Counted from the stretch's first letter, positions 201-48,204 are shown. The stretch: 48,215 nt of DNA from Armatimonadota bacterium (GCA_039630445.1 JBCNVA010000014.1:1-48215); one strand, 5' to 3'. Notes: generated from the sequence alone by a model not told the origin. Translations and numbers: made by a program.

Positions 201-1007
201 ATGCGATCGGCGTTTGAGCAGTTGCCCGATGTGGCGATGGAGAGCGATTCGCGGGGCGTTGCGCTACAAGCGGTTGGCGTTCGGGAGTTGCGCCTTCCCT
301 TGAGGCTTATTACCCCCACAGGTGCGGAGCAGGCGGTGATTGCCAGCGCAGAGTTGAGCGTGGATATCGAGGCGTCTCAGCGCGGCACCCACATGAGTCG
401 TCTGGTAGAGACACTCTATGAGTGGACGGCTCAGCCTCAGTCGCCTGCAGGGGTACGCGAGCTGCTGCAACTTACCCAAGAGCGATTGGGCAGTCGTCGC
501 GCCCATCTGTGCCTGCGCTTTCCCTACTTCGTGTCGCTTGCAGCCCCCGTTACAGGTGTGTCGGGGTTGCTGGATATAGAAGTGGAGTGGGACGCACAGC
601 TTGCAAACGGCGTCTCGTGCGGCACCACCTTCTTTGAAGTGCCCGCGCTGACGCTCTGCCCCTGTAGCAAAGCCATCTCCGAGTTTGGGGCACATAATCA
701 GCGTGCGCTTGTGCGCCTCTGGCTGCAGACGAATGACCGTGCGCTTCTGCTACCTGACGATTACCTGCCGTTGATCGAGCAATCAGTCAGCGCCCTGGTC
801 TATCCTGTGCTGAAGCGTCCCGACGAAAAGTTCGTGACGGAGAAAACCTACGAGACGCCGCGCTTTGTGGAGGATGTGGTGCGTGAGCTGGTGCTGCGCC
901 TGCAGGAGCGCAAGGAGCTGCGCTGGTTCCGTGCCGAGTGCGAATCGATCGAATCGATCCATAACCATAACGCTTTTGCGCGGTATGAGGAGCCGCGTCC
1001 GAAATAG
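201..1007 (+). CDS. folE2: GTP cyclohydrolase I type IB (FolE2)
   Basis: Motifs LPDV, RGTHMSR, TLCPCSK, GAHNQR, LKRPDEK, P.FVED, ESIHNH.A. Start re-set to ATG 201. Confidence 0.93.
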   Translation: MRSAFEQLPDVAMESDSRGVALQAVGVRELRLPLRLITPTGAEQAVIASAELSVDIEASQRGTHMSRLVETLYEWTAQPQSPAGVRELLQLTQERLGSRRAHLCLRFPYFVSLAAPVTGVSGLLDIEVEWDAQLANGVSCGTTFFEVPALTLCPCSKAISEFGAHNQRALVRLWLQTNDRALLLPDDYLPLIEQSVSALVYPVLKRPDEKFVTEKTYETPRFVEDVVRELVLRLQERKELRWFRAECESIESIHNHNAFARYEEPRPK

Positions 1008-1050
1008 CGAAGTGGCGAAATAGCGAAGTGGCAAGATAGCGAATGGCGAA
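1001..1050 (+). repeat. Degenerate 7/8-mer tandem repeat at the folE2/znuC junction
   Basis: GAAATAGC GAAGTGGC GAAATAGC GAAGTGGC AAGATAGC GAATGGC GAA. Confidence 0.9.
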
Positions 1051-5522: not shown

Positions 5523-5597
5523 TCCTGGGTAGCTCAACGGTAGAGCGGGTGGCTGTTAACCACCAGGTTGCAGGTTCGAATCCTGCCCCAGGAGCCA
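5523..5597 (+). tRNA. tRNA-Asn (GTT)
   Basis: Acceptor stem TCCTGGG/CCCAGGA, anticodon arm GGTGG-CTGTTAA-CCACC, T-loop TTCGAAT, encoded CCA. Confidence 0.97.
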
Positions 5598-10139: not shown

Positions 10140-10285
10140 GTCGTCGGCGAGACGCCGACGCTACGAACGCGCCCTGCGTAGCGTCGGCGTCCCCGCCGAC
10201 GATAAGAACGCGCCCTGCGTAGCATCGGCGTCCCCGCCGACGATAAGAACGCGCCCTGCGTAGCGTCGGCGTCCCCGCCGACGAT
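10140..10285. repeat. GTAG-type REP cluster (BIME-like): one inverted plus three tandem copies, 41-bp period
   Basis: Unit GAACGCGCCCTGC-GTAGCGTCGGCGTCCCCGCCGACG-ATAA starts at 10165, 10206 and 10247; inverted copy at 10140-10164. Confidence 0.9.
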
Positions 10286-43235: not shown

Positions 43236-43784
43236 ATGGCGCATGTAGCAGTAGCTCCAAGGATTTACGGCATTATGGCGGAGTTTGAGTCGCCCGAGGC
43301 GTTGATCGAGGCGGCACGCCAGACGCGGCTGGAGGGCTACCGCCGCTTCGATTGCTACACGCCGTTTCCCATTCACGGCTTGACCGACGCGATGGGCGTG
43401 CGCGAGGCGAAGGTGCCATGGACGGTGTTCATCTGCGGCTTGATTGGGGCGCTTTTCGGCTTCGGATTGCAGGTCTACACCAGCGCCATCGACTACCCGC
43501 TCATGGTCGGCGGGCGCGACCTGATTAGCTGGCCCTACTTCATCCCCGTCACCTTCGAGTGTATGGTGCTGTTCGCGGCGTTTGGGGCATTCATCGGCAT
43601 GCTGGCATACAACGGCTTGCCTGCGCCGTATCATCCTGTGTTCAATGTGCCCCAGTTCGTCCGCGCCAGCGTGGATCGCTTCTTCCTGTGCATCGAGTCG
43701 CGCGACCCGAAGTTCGACCCGCAGCGCACGCGGGAATTCCTGCAGCGTCTGAACCCCATCAGCATTAGCGAGGTGGAGGAGTGA
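43236..43784 (+). CDS. actD: Alternative complex III subunit D (DUF3341)
   Basis: AEFE.PE.L, YTPFPIHGL, DYPL.VGGR, FIPVTFE, S.DRFFL.I. Confidence 0.93.
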   Translation: MAHVAVAPRIYGIMAEFESPEALIEAARQTRLEGYRRFDCYTPFPIHGLTDAMGVREAKVPWTVFICGLIGALFGFGLQVYTSAIDYPLMVGGRDLISWPYFIPVTFECMVLFAAFGAFIGMLAYNGLPAPYHPVFNVPQFVRASVDRFFLCIESRDPKFDPQRTREFLQRLNPISISEVEE

Positions 43785-44503
43785 ACATGGTAAGCGGCGA
43801 GCGGCGAGTGGCGAGTGGTAAGTGGCAAATGGCGCGTAGCGAGTGGCGGGCTATTGCTATCTGCTCTGCGCTCGTTGCGCTGTGTTTCGGGTTGAGTGGC
43901 TGCCGCACCGATATGTGGGTGCAGCAGCGGGTGGAGGCACAGAGCAACAGCGAATTTTATGCGATTACTGAGCAGTTAGTTGGTCCCGATGGGCGGATTT
44001 ATGGCTCTGGTTCACGCCCGACGCCGCCGAACACCATCGCGCGGGGACGCTTAGTTGACCCGAACGACCCGCTGCTGACGGGCAAGGACGCTAAAGGCAA
44101 CCAGTTGAACACGCTGCCTCCGCCACTCAAACTCACGCGCGAGTTGCTGGATCGGGGTCAGGAGCAGTACGATGTGTTCTGCGCTCCCTGTCACGGCAGG
44201 GCGGGCGACGGCAAAGGGATGATCGCGCTGCGCGGGCAGTGGCCTCGGATGCCTGCCTCGCTGATCGACGCGCGGATGCAGAGCATGCCACTGGGCTACT
44301 TCTATGCTGTCGCCACGAACGGCTTCGGCATCATGTACGGCTACGGCAAGCGCATGCCTCCAGAGGATCGCTGGGCGATAGCTGCCTACATTCGAGTCCT
44401 GCAGCTCAGCCAGAACGCGAAGTTCACCGAGCTGCCTCCTGAGGACCAGCAGAAGGCGCTGGAGGCGTTCGCCAAGCAGATGGAACAGGGCGCGGAGGAA
44501 TAG
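43781..44503 (+). CDS. actE: Alternative complex III monoheme cytochrome c lipoprotein
   Basis: Lipobox LSGC, RGQE.YD.FCAPCHG, DRWAI.AYIR.LQ.SQ; start may be ATG 43787 or later. Confidence 0.9.
   Translation: MNMVSGERRVASGKWQMARSEWRAIAICSALVALCFGLSGCRTDMWVQQRVEAQSNSEFYAITEQLVGPDGRIYGSGSRPTPPNTIARGRLVDPNDPLLTGKDAKGNQLNTLPPPLKLTRELLDRGQEQYDVFCAPCHGRAGDGKGMIALRGQWPRMPASLIDARMQSMPLGYFYAVATNGFGIMYGYGKRMPPEDRWAIAAYIRVLQLSQNAKFTELPPEDQQKALEAFAKQMEQGAEE
43787..43848 (+). repeat. Degenerate 7-mer tandem repeat at the actD/actE junction, translated into the ActE N-terminus
   Basis: ATGGT AAGCGGC GAGCGGC GAGTGGC GAGTGGT AAGTGGC AAATGGC GCGTAGC GAGTGGC. Confidence 0.85.
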
Positions 44504-44504
44504 G

Positions 44505-45704
44505 ATGAGCATGGTCAATCTTGCTGCGGAGCAGGTGCGAGGCACGATTGAGCGGGCGCGTGGAACCGCCCTGATGCTGGGCATTATTGGGCTGATCCTT
44601 TGGGCGACAGGGCTGTTCACGAACCGCACGCTCGCCTTTCAGGGCTATCATTTCGCCTTCATCTTCTGGGTAGGGCTGGGCATCGGCTGCCTTGGCATGA
44701 CGCTGCTGGTGCATGTGGTGCGTGGCAAGTGGGGTCAGCCGCTGGTGCGTCTCTTTGAGGCAGGGGCGCAGACCCTCGTACCGCTGGGCGTGATTATGTT
44801 CATTCCCGTGCTGCTGGGCATGCACGCCATTTTTGAGTGGACACATGCCGATGTGGTGCAAAAAGATCCGATCATCGCCTTCAAGGCGAAGTACTATCTC
44901 AATCTGCCCTTTTTCCTGGTTCGGGTGGCGGCGTACTTTGCGCTATGGTGGCTTCTGACCTCTGTGATGGTGCGCAGCAGCACGCAACAAGACGCGGCAA
45001 GAGACCCGATTGAAGCTGAGATGATTTCGCGTCAACGGATGACCCCAGCTGCTGTGGGCATCCCCTTCTATGTGTTGGCGGTGACCTTTTTCACGGTGGA
45101 CATGGCAATGTCGCTGCAGCCCCACTGGTTCTCCACGATGTATGGGGTCATCTTTCTGGTGGGGTTTGCTCTGACTGCGATGGCGTTGGCGACGCTGCTG
45201 GTGGTGTCCTGGCGCGAAATCCCACCTTACAAGGGGTTGATCCATTTCGAGTTCCGCCGTGACTGGGGCAACCTGCTGTTCACGATGACGGTGTTCTGGT
45301 CGTATGTCTCCTTCTCCCAGCTGCTGATTATCTATTCAGGCAACCTGCCCGAGGAGACAAGCTTCTACCTGCGACGCAACGCAGGGGGCTGGCATCCCGT
45401 GTCGTGGCTGATTGTGATTTTCCACTTCTTTGTGCCGTTCTTCATGCTGCTGGCACCGCGCACGAAGCGTATTCCACAACTGCTGATCCTGAGTGCGGCT
45501 ATTCTGCTGGCAATCCGCGTGATTGAGATGTTCTGGGAGATCAAGCCTGCTTTCTCGGCGACTTTTAGCGTGAGCTTGTACGATGTGGCGGCGTTTGTGG
45601 GACTGGGCGGCATCTGGTTCTGGGCGATGTTCGGCAATCTGCTGAAGCGCCCGCTGCTGCCGCAGAACGAGCCACGCCTGGCGGAGGTGCCGCATGCACA
45701 TTAA
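44505..45704 (+). CDS. actF: Alternative complex III subunit F
   Basis: Polytopic membrane protein; YLN.PFF..R, MSL.PHWFSTMYG, D.G.LLF, Y..FSQ.LII.SGNLPEE. Confidence 0.92.
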   Translation: MSMVNLAAEQVRGTIERARGTALMLGIIGLILWATGLFTNRTLAFQGYHFAFIFWVGLGIGCLGMTLLVHVVRGKWGQPLVRLFEAGAQTLVPLGVIMFIPVLLGMHAIFEWTHADVVQKDPIIAFKAKYYLNLPFFLVRVAAYFALWWLLTSVMVRSSTQQDAARDPIEAEMISRQRMTPAAVGIPFYVLAVTFFTVDMAMSLQPHWFSTMYGVIFLVGFALTAMALATLLVVSWREIPPYKGLIHFEFRRDWGNLLFTMTVFWSYVSFSQLLIIYSGNLPEETSFYLRRNAGGWHPVSWLIVIFHFFVPFFMLLAPRTKRIPQLLILSAAILLAIRVIEMFWEIKPAFSATFSVSLYDVAAFVGLGGIWFWAMFGNLLKRPLLPQNEPRLAEVPHAH

Positions 45705-45706
45705 AG

Positions 45707-45764
45707 GGCGAAGTGGCGCAATAGCGAATGGCGAAATGGTAAGAGAGCGAAGTGGCGAAATGGC
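45707..45764 (+). repeat. Degenerate 7/8-mer tandem repeat between actF and actG
   Basis: GGC GAAGTGGC GCAATAGC GAATGGC GAAATGGT AAGAGAGC GAAGTGGC GAAATGGC. Confidence 0.88.
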
Positions 45765-45800: not shown

Positions 45801-46265
45801 ATGGAACTGCTTAAACCCGTAACGCCGGAGGAGCTGGAGCAGATCGAAAAGACGCCCTATGAGGCGCGAGACCTGTCGGTGCGCGCGATGGTGCAGTTCC
45901 TCGCGCTCATCTTCTTCACCATTATCGGCTCACTCATCATTTCCTACTTTGTCTTTCTGTGGATCCTGCCCAAGGAGGAACCGGGGCTACCCTCTGTTCG
46001 TAAGGAAGCATTGGAGAGACAGCTACCACCAGAGCCGCGCGTGCAAGGGTTCCCCATGCAGGACTGGGAAAAGTTCTATGCCCAAGAGATCGAGAAGACC
46101 ACCACCTACTCTGTTGACCCCAAAACGGGCATCGCGCGGATTCCGGTGGAGCGCGCGAAGGAAATCATTCTGCAGCGAGGGTTAGGAGGAACGCCCACGC
46201 CACAAGGGACAAACCGTTCGGGCGGAACACCTAACTCCCAAGGGGTGAAAACAGATGCGAAATAG
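45801..46265 (+). CDS. Single-TM protein at the ActG position
   Basis: One TM helix, PPEPR.Q, RIP.ERA; lies between actF and SCO; SD GGAGG. Confidence 0.7.
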   Translation: MELLKPVTPEELEQIEKTPYEARDLSVRAMVQFLALIFFTIIGSLIISYFVFLWILPKEEPGLPSVRKEALERQLPPEPRVQGFPMQDWEKFYAQEIEKTTTYSVDPKTGIARIPVERAKEIILQRGLGGTPTPQGTNRSGGTPNSQGVKTDAK

Positions 46266-47223
46266 CGAACGGCGAATCGCGAATGGCAAGTGGAACAGTC
46301 CGCGCCACCAGAAAAGGTGGGCGTGGCTGATTGGAGGCATGCTGCTACTTGGGGGGCTATTCAGTTCCACAACAGCGCAGCTGTACCGCCGCCCGCCAGA
46401 ACTGACCGCAGAGGTGAACCAGCGGGTGCTTGAAAATGTAGACATCAAGCAAAAACTGAACGCGCAGGTTCCGCTCGATCTGACTTTCCGTGACGAGACA
46501 GGCAACACGGTTCGGCTGGGCGACTACTTTGGCAAGCGTCCCGTTATCCTCACGATGAATTACTACGAGTGCCCTATGCTCTGCACTGTCGTGCTGAACG
46601 AATTGACTCGGGCACTCAACGCGATTGAGTACCGCATCGGCAAGGACTTCGAGGTAGTCACGGTGAGTATTGCGCCCAACGAGACGCCCCAGCTGGCAGC
46701 TAAAAAGAAGGCGAACTATGTCAAAGCCTATCGCTACGGAGGGGCGGAGAAGGGCTGGCACTTCCTGACAGGCGAGGAGGCAAACATTCGCCGGCTGGCA
46801 GATGCGGTGGGGTTCCAGTATGTGTATGACCCGCGCACCAAGCAGTACGCGCATACCGCTGCCATCATGATCCTCACGCCTGATGGACGGCTTTCGCGCT
46901 ACTTGCTGGGCGTCATGTACGCCCCAAGAGACCTGGAGTTTGCCCTGATGGAGGCTTCGGAGGGCAAGATTGGCAATCCCGTGAAGCGGGTGGTTCTCTA
47001 TTGCTACCAATATGATCCGTCCACAGGCAAGTACGGGCTGGTGATTCTTCGGCTTGTGCAGGTGGGTGGCGTGCTGACGGTGCTGGCGTTGGGGCTGCTG
47101 ATTGGCGGTCTGCTGTGGTTGGAGCGGCGTCGCCCGCGCACGGGTGATAGCGAAATGGCGAATGGTGAAGTGGCGAATAGTGAAGTGGCGAAATGGCGAA
47201 GTGGCGAAAAGCGAGTGAGGTGA
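46255..47223 (+). CDS. SCO1/SenC family copper chaperone
   Basis: YYECPMLC (CxxxC), WHFLTG, QYAH, C-terminal CYQYDP..GKY plus TM helix. Confidence 0.92.
   Translation: MRNSERRIANGKWNSPRHQKRWAWLIGGMLLLGGLFSSTTAQLYRRPPELTAEVNQRVLENVDIKQKLNAQVPLDLTFRDETGNTVRLGDYFGKRPVILTMNYYECPMLCTVVLNELTRALNAIEYRIGKDFEVVTVSIAPNETPQLAAKKKANYVKAYRYGGAEKGWHFLTGEEANIRRLADAVGFQYVYDPRTKQYAHTAAIMILTPDGRLSRYLLGVMYAPRDLEFALMEASEGKIGNPVKRVVLYCYQYDPSTGKYGLVILRLVQVGGVLTVLALGLLIGGLLWLERRRPRTGDSEMANGEVANSEVAKWRSGEKRVR
46257..46293 (+). repeat. Degenerate 7/8-mer repeat at the actG/SCO junction
   Basis: GC GAAATAGC GAACGGC GAATCGC GAATGGC AAGTGG. Confidence 0.8.
47146..47217 (+). repeat. Degenerate 7/8-mer repeat at the SCO/coxB junction, translated into the SCO tail
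   Basis: GATAGC GAAATGGC GAATGGT GAAGTGGC GAATAGT GAAGTGGC GAAATGGC GAAGTGGC GAAAAGC GAGTG. Confidence 0.9.
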
Positions 47224-47229
47224 GACGCT

Positions 47230-48204
47230 AGGTGGAACATTCCGTTCCTTCCGCCGACGGCATCGAAAGAGGGCGAGGCGATCTCCGCCCTCTACTGGAC
47301 GATTAGCATCTTAGCCATCATCTTTGGCGCGATTGTGCTGTTCGGTGCGGTCTATCTGGCAGTGAAGTATCGCGCCAGTAATGAGGCAGTGCGCCGCGAC
47401 GATGCCGTGGAGACCGATATGCGGTTGGAGTTGGGTTGGACGCTGGTGCCGCTCATCCTGGCAATCGCAATTTTCGGCTGGGCTGCTAAACTCTACGGTG
47501 ACATCTACGCGCCGCGCGAAGGGGCTTATGAAGTGTTCGTGATCGGTAAGCAGTGGATGTGGCACTGCCAGCACCCGAACGGCGTTCGCGAAAACAACGA
47601 GTTGCACCTGCCCGCTGGGCGACTGGTGAAGGTCAACCTCATCTCGCAAGATGTGATCCATGCCTTCTCGATTCCTGCCTTCCGCATCAAGCGCGATGCT
47701 GTGCCCGGACGCTATAATGCGATGTTCTTCACGCCCACCAAACCGGGCAAATACCATCTGTTCTGCACCGAGTATTGTGGTACAAAGCACTCGGAGATGA
47801 TTGGCTGGGTCTATGTGCTGCCTCCAGAGGAGTTCCAGCAGTGGCTGGCACAGGGCGGCGGCGCGGCGGCTGCGACCACCGCGATGTCCCTGGAGCAGCA
47901 GGGCAAGCAGGTGTTTGAGGGTGTAGGCGCGTGCAACTCGTGCCATATGAACCCGAACGCCGCCGTCAAAGCGCCCGACTTGCGTGGACTGTTCGGCAAA
48001 AAGGTAAAATTAGCGGATGGACGCACCGTCGTCGCCGATGAAGCCTATATTCGTGAATCGATTCTTAATCCGGGTGCAAAGATAGTAGCAGGCTATCAAA
48101 ACCTGATGCCACCCTATCAGGGTGTGCTGAGTGAGGAACAGATTATTCAGTTAATCGCTTATATCAAATCGCTGGCAAACGAGCAGCCAGCAGGAGGGAT
48201 GTAA
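47230..48204 (+). CDS. coxB: Cytochrome c oxidase subunit II with fused cytochrome c (caa3 type); apparent start codon reads AGG
   Basis: KQWMW, DVIH, CuA motif CTEYCGTKHSEM, heme motif CNSCH; the frame is open upstream of GTG 47335 through WNIPFLPPTAS...ISALYW. Confidence 0.9.
   Translation, partial: RWNIPFLPPTASKEGEAISALYWTISILAIIFGAIVLFGAVYLAVKYRASNEAVRRDDAVETDMRLELGWTLVPLILAIAIFGWAAKLYGDIYAPREGAYEVFVIGKQWMWHCQHPNGVRENNELHLPAGRLVKVNLISQDVIHAFSIPAFRIKRDAVPGRYNAMFFTPTKPGKYHLFCTEYCGTKHSEMIGWVYVLPPEEFQQWLAQGGGAAAATTAMSLEQQGKQVFEGVGACNSCHMNPNAAVKAPDLRGLFGKKVKLADGRTVVADEAYIRESILNPGAKIVAGYQNLMPPYQGVLSEEQIIQLIAYIKSLANEQPAGGM

Follow-up and report, generated by a model that had tools for sequence, protein, structure and literature searches.

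Heptamer-type arrays are abundant in several bacterial phyla and have gone for about 35 years without an accepted function or spreading mechanism. The cyanobacterial STRR sequences are tandem heptamers found at about 100 dispersed loci per genome, often within operons, and their function is not known. A different arrangement is familiar from the intervening sequences of 23S rRNA, where IVS-like cassettes carry a PF05635 gene with inverted heptamer arms.

The G-rich heptamers of Xanthomonas and Nostoc, GGGAATC and GGGGA(C/T)T, are described by Rehm et al. 2015 (PMC4692102), a paper whose introduction also cites the Calothrix PCC 7601 report on STRR heptamers. These arrays lie preferentially between aligned ORFs; few are found in coding DNA or between divergently oriented ORFs. 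Of the two neighbours, the 5' ORF is the nearer, its coding-strand stop (overlap included) or non-coding-strand start being no more than 50 bp away. The arrays vary between close species, some form inverted pairs, and no function was found for them. Direct repeats of TAACTGA occur in Beggiatoaceae, Cyanobacteria and Bacteroidetes (MacGregor 2015, PMC4679880). Forward copies carry stops and overlap ORF ends only; reverse copies are translatable and occur in ORFs. Binding of these repeats by S1, Csp or CsrA has been proposed (PMC4679880).

Window tracts and the genome-wide family

The window, meaning here the whole 48,215-nt stretch of DNA that was analysed, is contig C46 of a 2.71-Mb assembly (G000; 190 contigs, 60% G+C, 97% complete). 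An earlier note on this DNA had described five tracts of a GCGAA-type unit of 7 or 8 nt at gene junctions. All five exist, on the + strand and at gene ends, and TRF detects each of them, with periods of 7/8 and also 15/16 or 31.

Array 1, 1001..1050, + strand: about 6 units, with the folE2 TAG (1005-1007) and the ABC-ATPase ATG (1043-1045) on either side.
Array 2, 43787..43848, + strand: a GCGAG/GTAAG heptamer variant, preceded by the actD TGA (43782-43784).
Array 3, 45705..45764, + strand: the actF TAA (45702-45704) lies directly before it and a 154-aa ORF (ATG 45801) downstream.
Array 4, 46257..46293, + strand: the 154-aa ORF ends on a TAG (46263-46265) supplied by the array, which is also translated as the SCO1/SenC N-terminus (ATG 46255).
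Array 5, 47146..47217, + strand: 9 units, read as the SCO1/SenC C-terminal tail (TGA 47221-47223), with coxB downstream.

By Pfam, tract 1 has folE2 (PF02649) and an ABC ATPase as neighbours, and tracts 2-5 fall in the series ActD / ActE cytochrome c / ActF / 154-aa ORF / SCO1/SenC / COX2. The neighbouring genes are all on the + strand, and the purine-rich strand of the tracts is indeed the sense strand. We infer that the flanking genes are co-transcribed. The pattern GCGAA-N2-3-GCGAA has 11 matches in the window, against 0.47 expected by chance, a number that none of 100 shuffles reaches. All 11 are on the + strand and within four of the five tracts, the fifth being the variant at 43787-43848. 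This variant tract donates a new ActE start (ATG 43787 or 43829) together with N-terminal residues. No ORF is inserted at any of the five window sites, and none of the five arrays, all + strand, has an inverted partner. Rfam at gathering thresholds gives a single match in the window, a tRNA gene at 5523-5594.

From 43829 to 43849, repeat-derived DNA encodes MARSEWR as the beginning of ActE. The same peptide starts an unrelated, hydantoinase-like protein in the congener G002, again from repeat-derived DNA, at the junction orthologous to position 10465 of contig C132.

Genome-wide, arrays were collected with a chain finder (core G[CT][GA]A[AG], spacing 7-8). Arrays of at least 4 units number 66 in the genome against 15 in a reversed-sequence control, and those of at least 5 units 50 against 6. 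A strict three-unit pattern has 117 matches, none in the control and 0-4 in each of 40 relatives. The GCGAA type also accounts for 51 of the 59 TRF arrays with a period of 6-9. Because 9 of 380 contig ends stop inside an array, 66 is a lower bound. What the earlier note had extrapolated from the window, a dispersed, strand-polarised family tied to gene ends, is thus borne out by at least 66 arrays.

The arrays consist of 4-12 head-to-tail units of 7 or 8 nt. The most frequent of the 344 units are GCGAAGTG (70), GCGAAATG (54), GCGAATG (32), GCGAAATA (30), GCGAAGTA (28) and GCGAATA (20), and 255 of them have the exact GCGAA core. Identical neighbouring units are depleted at lag 1 (13/276, z -3.0) and enriched at lag 2 (30/212, z +2.45). 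Two unlike units thus make up a dimeric module of about 15-16 nt. It can be written as GCGAAGTG followed by GCGAAAT(G/A), with GCGAAT(G/A) heptamers mixed in, and in polymer form the repeat is (GCGAAGTGGCGAAATG)n. Arrays are consistently heptameric or octameric (z 7.4). Units are no closer to each other within an array than across the genome (likeness 0.083 against 0.095, z -1.2). This lack of local uniformity is contrary to simple slippage, which predicts uniform arrays. The sense strand of the arrays is 34% A, 41% G, 12% C and 14% T (75% A+G). On folding, the minimum free energy per nt is -0.17 kcal for the sense RNA and -0.03 for the antisense RNA, against -0.26 for random genomic sequence.

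The position of the arrays was assessed with home-made gene calls based on codon log-odds, by which the class of an individual array may be wrong. The 210-nt flank upstream of the array has coding potential in the sense direction at 45 of 66 arrays and in the antisense direction at 11; it is non-coding at 10. A same-strand upstream ORF has its stop no more than 25 nt before the array or inside it at 39 of 66 arrays, while under a null model that scatters arrays at random over intergenic DNA, 7.9% fall in the 25 nt that follow a same-strand stop. Of the 46 arrays with an open sense ORF upstream, 12 follow its stop by 6-25 nt, 17 begin at it, 10 contain it and 7 end before it. The 39 stops near arrays are 19 TAG, 17 TGA and 3 TAA; genome-wide, 1748 stops comprise 522 TAG, 690 TGA and 536 TAA. 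The unit ATAGCGAA contains TAG. For nine arrays outside the sense class, an ORF on the opposite strand starts no more than 60 nt from the array's 5' end. An array's 5' end usually adjoins an ORF boundary, and the insertions and expansions sit in the few bases after a stop codon and, more rarely, before the start of a gene on the opposite strand.

The earlier note had seen no tract mid-gene or between divergent or convergent genes. This stands for the window and fails for the genome, where 6 in-frame sense arrays and about 5 antisense arrays lie inside ORFs, 6 arrays are convergent and 2 divergent. All 6 convergent arrays are immediately 3' of a gene on their own strand. The sense arrays inside ORFs are translated as peptides such as AKWRSGEMAN, and the antisense strand of the array has a stop codon in no frame. 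Arrays are tolerated in ORFs if they are in frame. The flanking genes are housekeeping genes (respiration, flagella, folate) and not surface antigens.

Replication orientation was considered as a cause of the polarity. Array strand was concordant with the sign of the 10-kb GC skew in 36 cases and discordant in 30, which lends this cause no support. The test is a weak one, since the skew itself tracks gene strand: for 83% of genes the coding strand has positive skew. On contig C148 (39500-40360), two paralogous pilin-like ORFs each follow a -10-like box (TATGAT or TAGAAT), and these boxes lie 22 nt from an antisense array.

Orthologous junctions and population variation

We aligned 25 arrays with the corresponding junctions of three congeners, G001-G003, at about 77-86% gene identity. 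In G002 and G003, 18 of the 25 sites are alignable and none of the 18 has a canonical array. The junctions are compact there, with an ATGA stop/start overlap at actD/actE, 9 nt at fliE/fliF and, at the tract 3 junction, 2 nt between the alignment anchors. A relic was found in this comparison at the C132 10465 site, where it is degenerate, heptamer-phased and translated as MARSEWR. In G001, 24 of the 25 sites are alignable and 7 carry short arrays of the family: C46 1007, C46 46257, C148 38866, C152 2616, C132 8920, C168 5829 and C172 34404. Two of these seven are inside genes, and two or three further G001 sites are doubtful. The G001 arrays are heptameric (GCGAGTG, GCGAATG), and at 6 of 8 comparable sites the G000 array is octameric instead.

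In the sampled junction DNA, arrays of at least 3 units number 19 in G001, from 447 kb that include overlaps and are enriched for array regions, and 1 each in G002 and G003. Unbiased samples gave 3 short arrays in 300 kb of G001 and none in 97 kb of G003. A further 400 kb of G012, also unbiased, held no array of period 6-8 and one 9-mer repeat only. By these alignments the arrays are lineage-specific insertions, missing at most orthologous sites of the sister species.

At tract 1, the distance from the folE2 TAG to the following ATG is 14 nt in G002 and G003, two heptamer units in G001 and 35 nt in G000. The earlier note had this tract supplying both the folE2 TAG and the ABC-ATPase (znuC) ATG, a claim that falls, as congeners without the array have both codons in the same places. 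The tract is instead an insertion between the two codons that overlaps both. The ortholog of tract 4 in G001 is an array with the same 8-7-7-7 pattern of units; G003 has none. Tract 5 stands in place of a non-repeat tail of similar length in G001-G003. In G000 the native stop position is kept, the array begins 0-5 nt later, and the stop is often rewritten to TAG.

The arrays also vary within the species' range of populations as sampled in hot-spring metagenome runs, where the stretch was found as DNA contigs. A 4.85-kb contig of run X1 spans tract 3 minus 39 nt (45708-45746), and contigs of runs X3 and X4 have a tract 5 longer by 45 nt. Array copy number therefore differs between populations. 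The pile-up in depth on tract 5 arises because contigs from all arrays map there. Close to tract 5, the window reads AGG at 47230-47232 where the congeners have the coxB start ATG. Contigs of X1, X3 and X4 have T at 47231, which gives ATG, so the AGG probably reflects either a variant or a misassembly of this MAG.

Several other elements were seen near arrays or at the compared junctions. At window positions 10153-10285 a 41-nt unit, which folds to a 13-bp hairpin (-25 kcal/mol), is repeated 3.2 times in tandem. BLAST gives 129 hits for this unit, spread over about 100 genomic places. On contig C118 it follows two GCGAA arrays immediately on their 3' side, and it looks like a second, REP-like repeat family. 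Beside an array on contig C42 (1745-1870) is an element of about 110 nt with internal hairpins. It is MITE-like, occurs at about 51 places in G000 and has copies in G002 and G003. At flgC/fliE, G001 has an unrelated 132-nt hairpin insert.

Variable copy number of a unit whose length is not a multiple of 3 could point to a phase-variation switch that shifts reading frames, and the guanines of the arrays to action through DNA or RNA structure such as a G-quadruplex (G4). GG recurs every 7-8 nt in about two-thirds of the units, and G4s form in vitro from published G-rich heptamers that are placed in the same way (PMC4692102). The arrays never contain GGG, however, so that at best a two-tetrad structure could form, which would be weak for an organism of hot springs, the habitat given by the run label. 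As for phase variation, the arrays are mosaics and not perfect repeats, and would therefore undergo less slippage. Their neighbours are housekeeping genes, and both length changes, 39 and 45 nt, are multiples of 3. We regard action by either route as very unlikely.

The arrays might instead be cis-elements of the mRNA that tune the next gene, either as iterated binding sites of an RNA-binding protein that is oligomeric or has several domains, or as a spacer for ribosome standby or re-initiation. Such a role would agree with the strong sense bias (45 against 11), the anchoring at stop codons and the conservation of the GCGAA core (255/344). By eye, the two-unit module GAAGTGGCGAAATGG resembles the stretch from ribosome-binding site to start in the congeners, GAGGTGGCG..ATGG. 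The genome-wide change of unit between G000 and G001 at orthologous sites is what co-evolution with a binding factor predicts, and the proposal of S1, Csp or CsrA for TAACTGA repeats is of the same sort (PMC4679880). The arrays are missing, however, at the same junctions of G002 and G003 (0/18) and are thus dispensable; their length differs between populations, and they occur inside ORFs too, in both orientations. No candidate binding protein was identified, and the Rfam search of the window returned one tRNA only. A cis-element role is possible on this evidence, though on the improbable side.

PF05635 genes and the spread of the arrays

The earlier note mentioned that similar tracts flank four-helix-bundle genes in other genomes and proposed that the window tracts are landing sites or scars of small mobile genes, left empty. 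The former point proved correct for this order, in which an array of 6-9-nt units accompanies 13 of 19 PF05635 loci, no farther than about 200 nt upstream or 260 nt downstream, and on both sides at 6 of them. Inverted arms at E<1e-3 are present at 7 of the 19. These cassettes have G-rich 5' arms, which set in at the upstream stop codon (L013-L016), as the G000 arrays do; insertion directly after the stop of an operon gene is common to both. G101 has one cassette, whose unit recurs at no fewer than 5 other loci. One of these is a solo array of 16 units, in sense orientation and directly after a TGA, and another is a hairpin with no gene. Cassette arms thus look like members of whatever array family the genome itself carries. 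We found no literature linking PF05635 with tandem repeats.

On the proposal itself, each G000 array would be an empty site or a one-armed remnant of an IVS-like cassette, in which a PF05635 gene lies between inverted heptamer arrays. Besides the likeness to the order's cassettes, it draws on two inverted array pairs in the genome (C137 3285-3353 and C66 10315-10397) and on a PF05635-like ORF that adjoins 2 of 111 GCGAA-type arrays of other phyla among the matches listed, a count that may be an underestimate given three wrongly long seed ORFs in the self-built profile. Yet 62 of 66 arrays are without an inverted partner, and PF05635 was not found in G000 or in its congeners G001-G003. The self-built profile gave no genuine match in G000, its two GroEL hits being artefacts of bad seeds. 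The family is present in 1 of 28 genomes of the bacterial family and in 49 of 121 of the order. None of the 25 orthologous junctions was found to hold an inserted gene in G001-G003. The commonest cassette site of the order is the junction between groES-like and groEL-like ORFs, host to 12 of the 20 best loci (L015, L016, L019-L027, L030), and this junction is array-free in G000. Another G000 junction compared with the cassette sites of relatives (C56 6828-6949) likewise has no listed array. The octamer expansion in G000, moreover, post-dates the split from G001 and took place without a PF05635 gene. Arrays therefore expand without a four-helix-bundle gene and do not depend on one. Empty landing sites are accordingly hard to maintain, and we consider them quite unlikely.

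We read the arrays, which are insertions in character, dispensable, polymorphic, tolerant of translation and independent of PF05635, as a lineage-specific dispersed family of the heptamer kind. Its members would be non-essential insertions after stop codons, amplified and reshuffled by recombination and module duplication and filtered by selection on position and orientation. We give this reading a probability of about 0.55. Microhomologies that resemble the unit, around stop and start codons, may seed arrays, which would grow by local duplication of the two-unit module. Spread and homogenisation could follow from recombination or template switching between arrays. Selection would then retain an array only where its position and orientation do no damage to ORFs or translation signals.

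The orientation of the retained arrays may reflect the transcripts of the two strands. The sense transcript would be a purine-rich, C-poor spacer of weak structure, offering TAG/TGA in two frames as well as ATG/GTG codons. A sense array would end the upstream ORF cleanly and could donate stops, starts and terminal residues. The antisense RNA is predicted to be C-rich and unstructured, resembling a Rho-loading site, and complementary to the GAGGTG-type ribosome-binding sites of the congeners; it would for these reasons be selected against inside operons. A stop-codon filter leaves the sense bias at operon junctions unexplained, because the native stop is retained in the aligned junctions, and the bias would therefore rest on the RNA-level argument.

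No transposase, reverse transcriptase or conserved non-repeat end was found accompanying the arrays. For a writer akin to reverse transcriptase or telomerase, PF00078 was sought and not found in the fragmented G000 assembly. MITE-like conserved non-repeat ends were likewise sought, and the 45-nt flanks of the arrays have none.

The unit itself extends far beyond this lineage. At least 111 stretches of reference genomes have GCGAARTR arrays, and the hosts among the matches listed include Bacteroidales, Phycisphaerales, Saprospiraceae, Acidobacteria MAGs, Bryocella and Agromyces. In the set L031-L141 the GCGAA(A/G)T(A/G) arrays are long, and some form inverted pairs with a loop of about 30 nt. 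Given many genomes and many units, the recurrence of one octamer may be due to chance. It would also be accounted for by a machinery that templates or converts repeats, writing or homogenising them genome-wide in a sequence-specific way, with ORF ends as anchors. The PF05635 cassettes would then be passengers that exploit the arrays and not their cause. Such a machinery would likewise account for the switch between octamer and heptamer at orthologous sites in sister species, and for units that are no more alike within an array than genome-wide. The sites that are octameric in G000 and heptameric in G001 (6/8), together with the kept GCGAA core, fit a sequence-specific factor or template as well as they fit the dispersed, selection-filtered family. 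The family reading itself does not account for the mosaic arrays or for the species-wide change of unit at orthologous sites. We hold a templating machinery to be unlikely.

This genome offers a clean natural case for the study of such arrays, with one dominant family and sister species that have few or no arrays. It further offers a change in unit length at orthologous arrays, copy-number differences between populations, and stops, starts and protein termini that have been rewritten. It also shows that arrays can expand in a lineage that has no PF05635 gene, which limits the idea that such genes explain the arrays.

Comparison with known repeat systems

The earlier note called the tracts its best candidate for an undescribed system. 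This is too strong, as the same placement rules have been published for heptamers (PMC4692102, PMC4679880).

Compared with the IVS-like PF05635 cassettes, the arrays share a unit of 7-8 nt, a position at the upstream stop in operons and the same order of hosts. They differ from the cassettes in that they have no cargo gene and no inverted 3' arm. The cyanobacterial STRR differ in unit, and the host here is not a cyanobacterium.

The TAACTGA repeats are likewise intergenic and gene-oriented heptamers, with one unit found in unrelated phyla without a known transfer mechanism (PMC4679880). They lie mostly a few nucleotides upstream of start codons, usually in 2-6 copies, whereas the arrays here lie at the upstream stop and reach 12 units.

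With the arrays of Xanthomonas and Nostoc, the arrays here share their number, many dispersed arrays per genome, as well as the anchoring to the 5' ORF and the variation at the same junctions in close species. In place of a single 7-nt unit, the present arrays have a 7/8-nt mosaic with a 15-16-nt dimer module, and the sense bias of 45:11 contrasts with a roughly equal strand split in Xanthomonas (PMC4692102). The host belongs to a different lineage and comes from hot springs. Runs of GG here against GGG there make G4 formation unlikely in our arrays. The absence of G3+ tracts, the feature of the G4 subclass of Rehm et al., excludes the arrays from that subclass and not from the wider heptamer kind. 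By these comparisons, the tracts are of the same kind as the heptameric long simple-sequence repeats of Xanthomonas, Nostoc and Beggiatoaceae.
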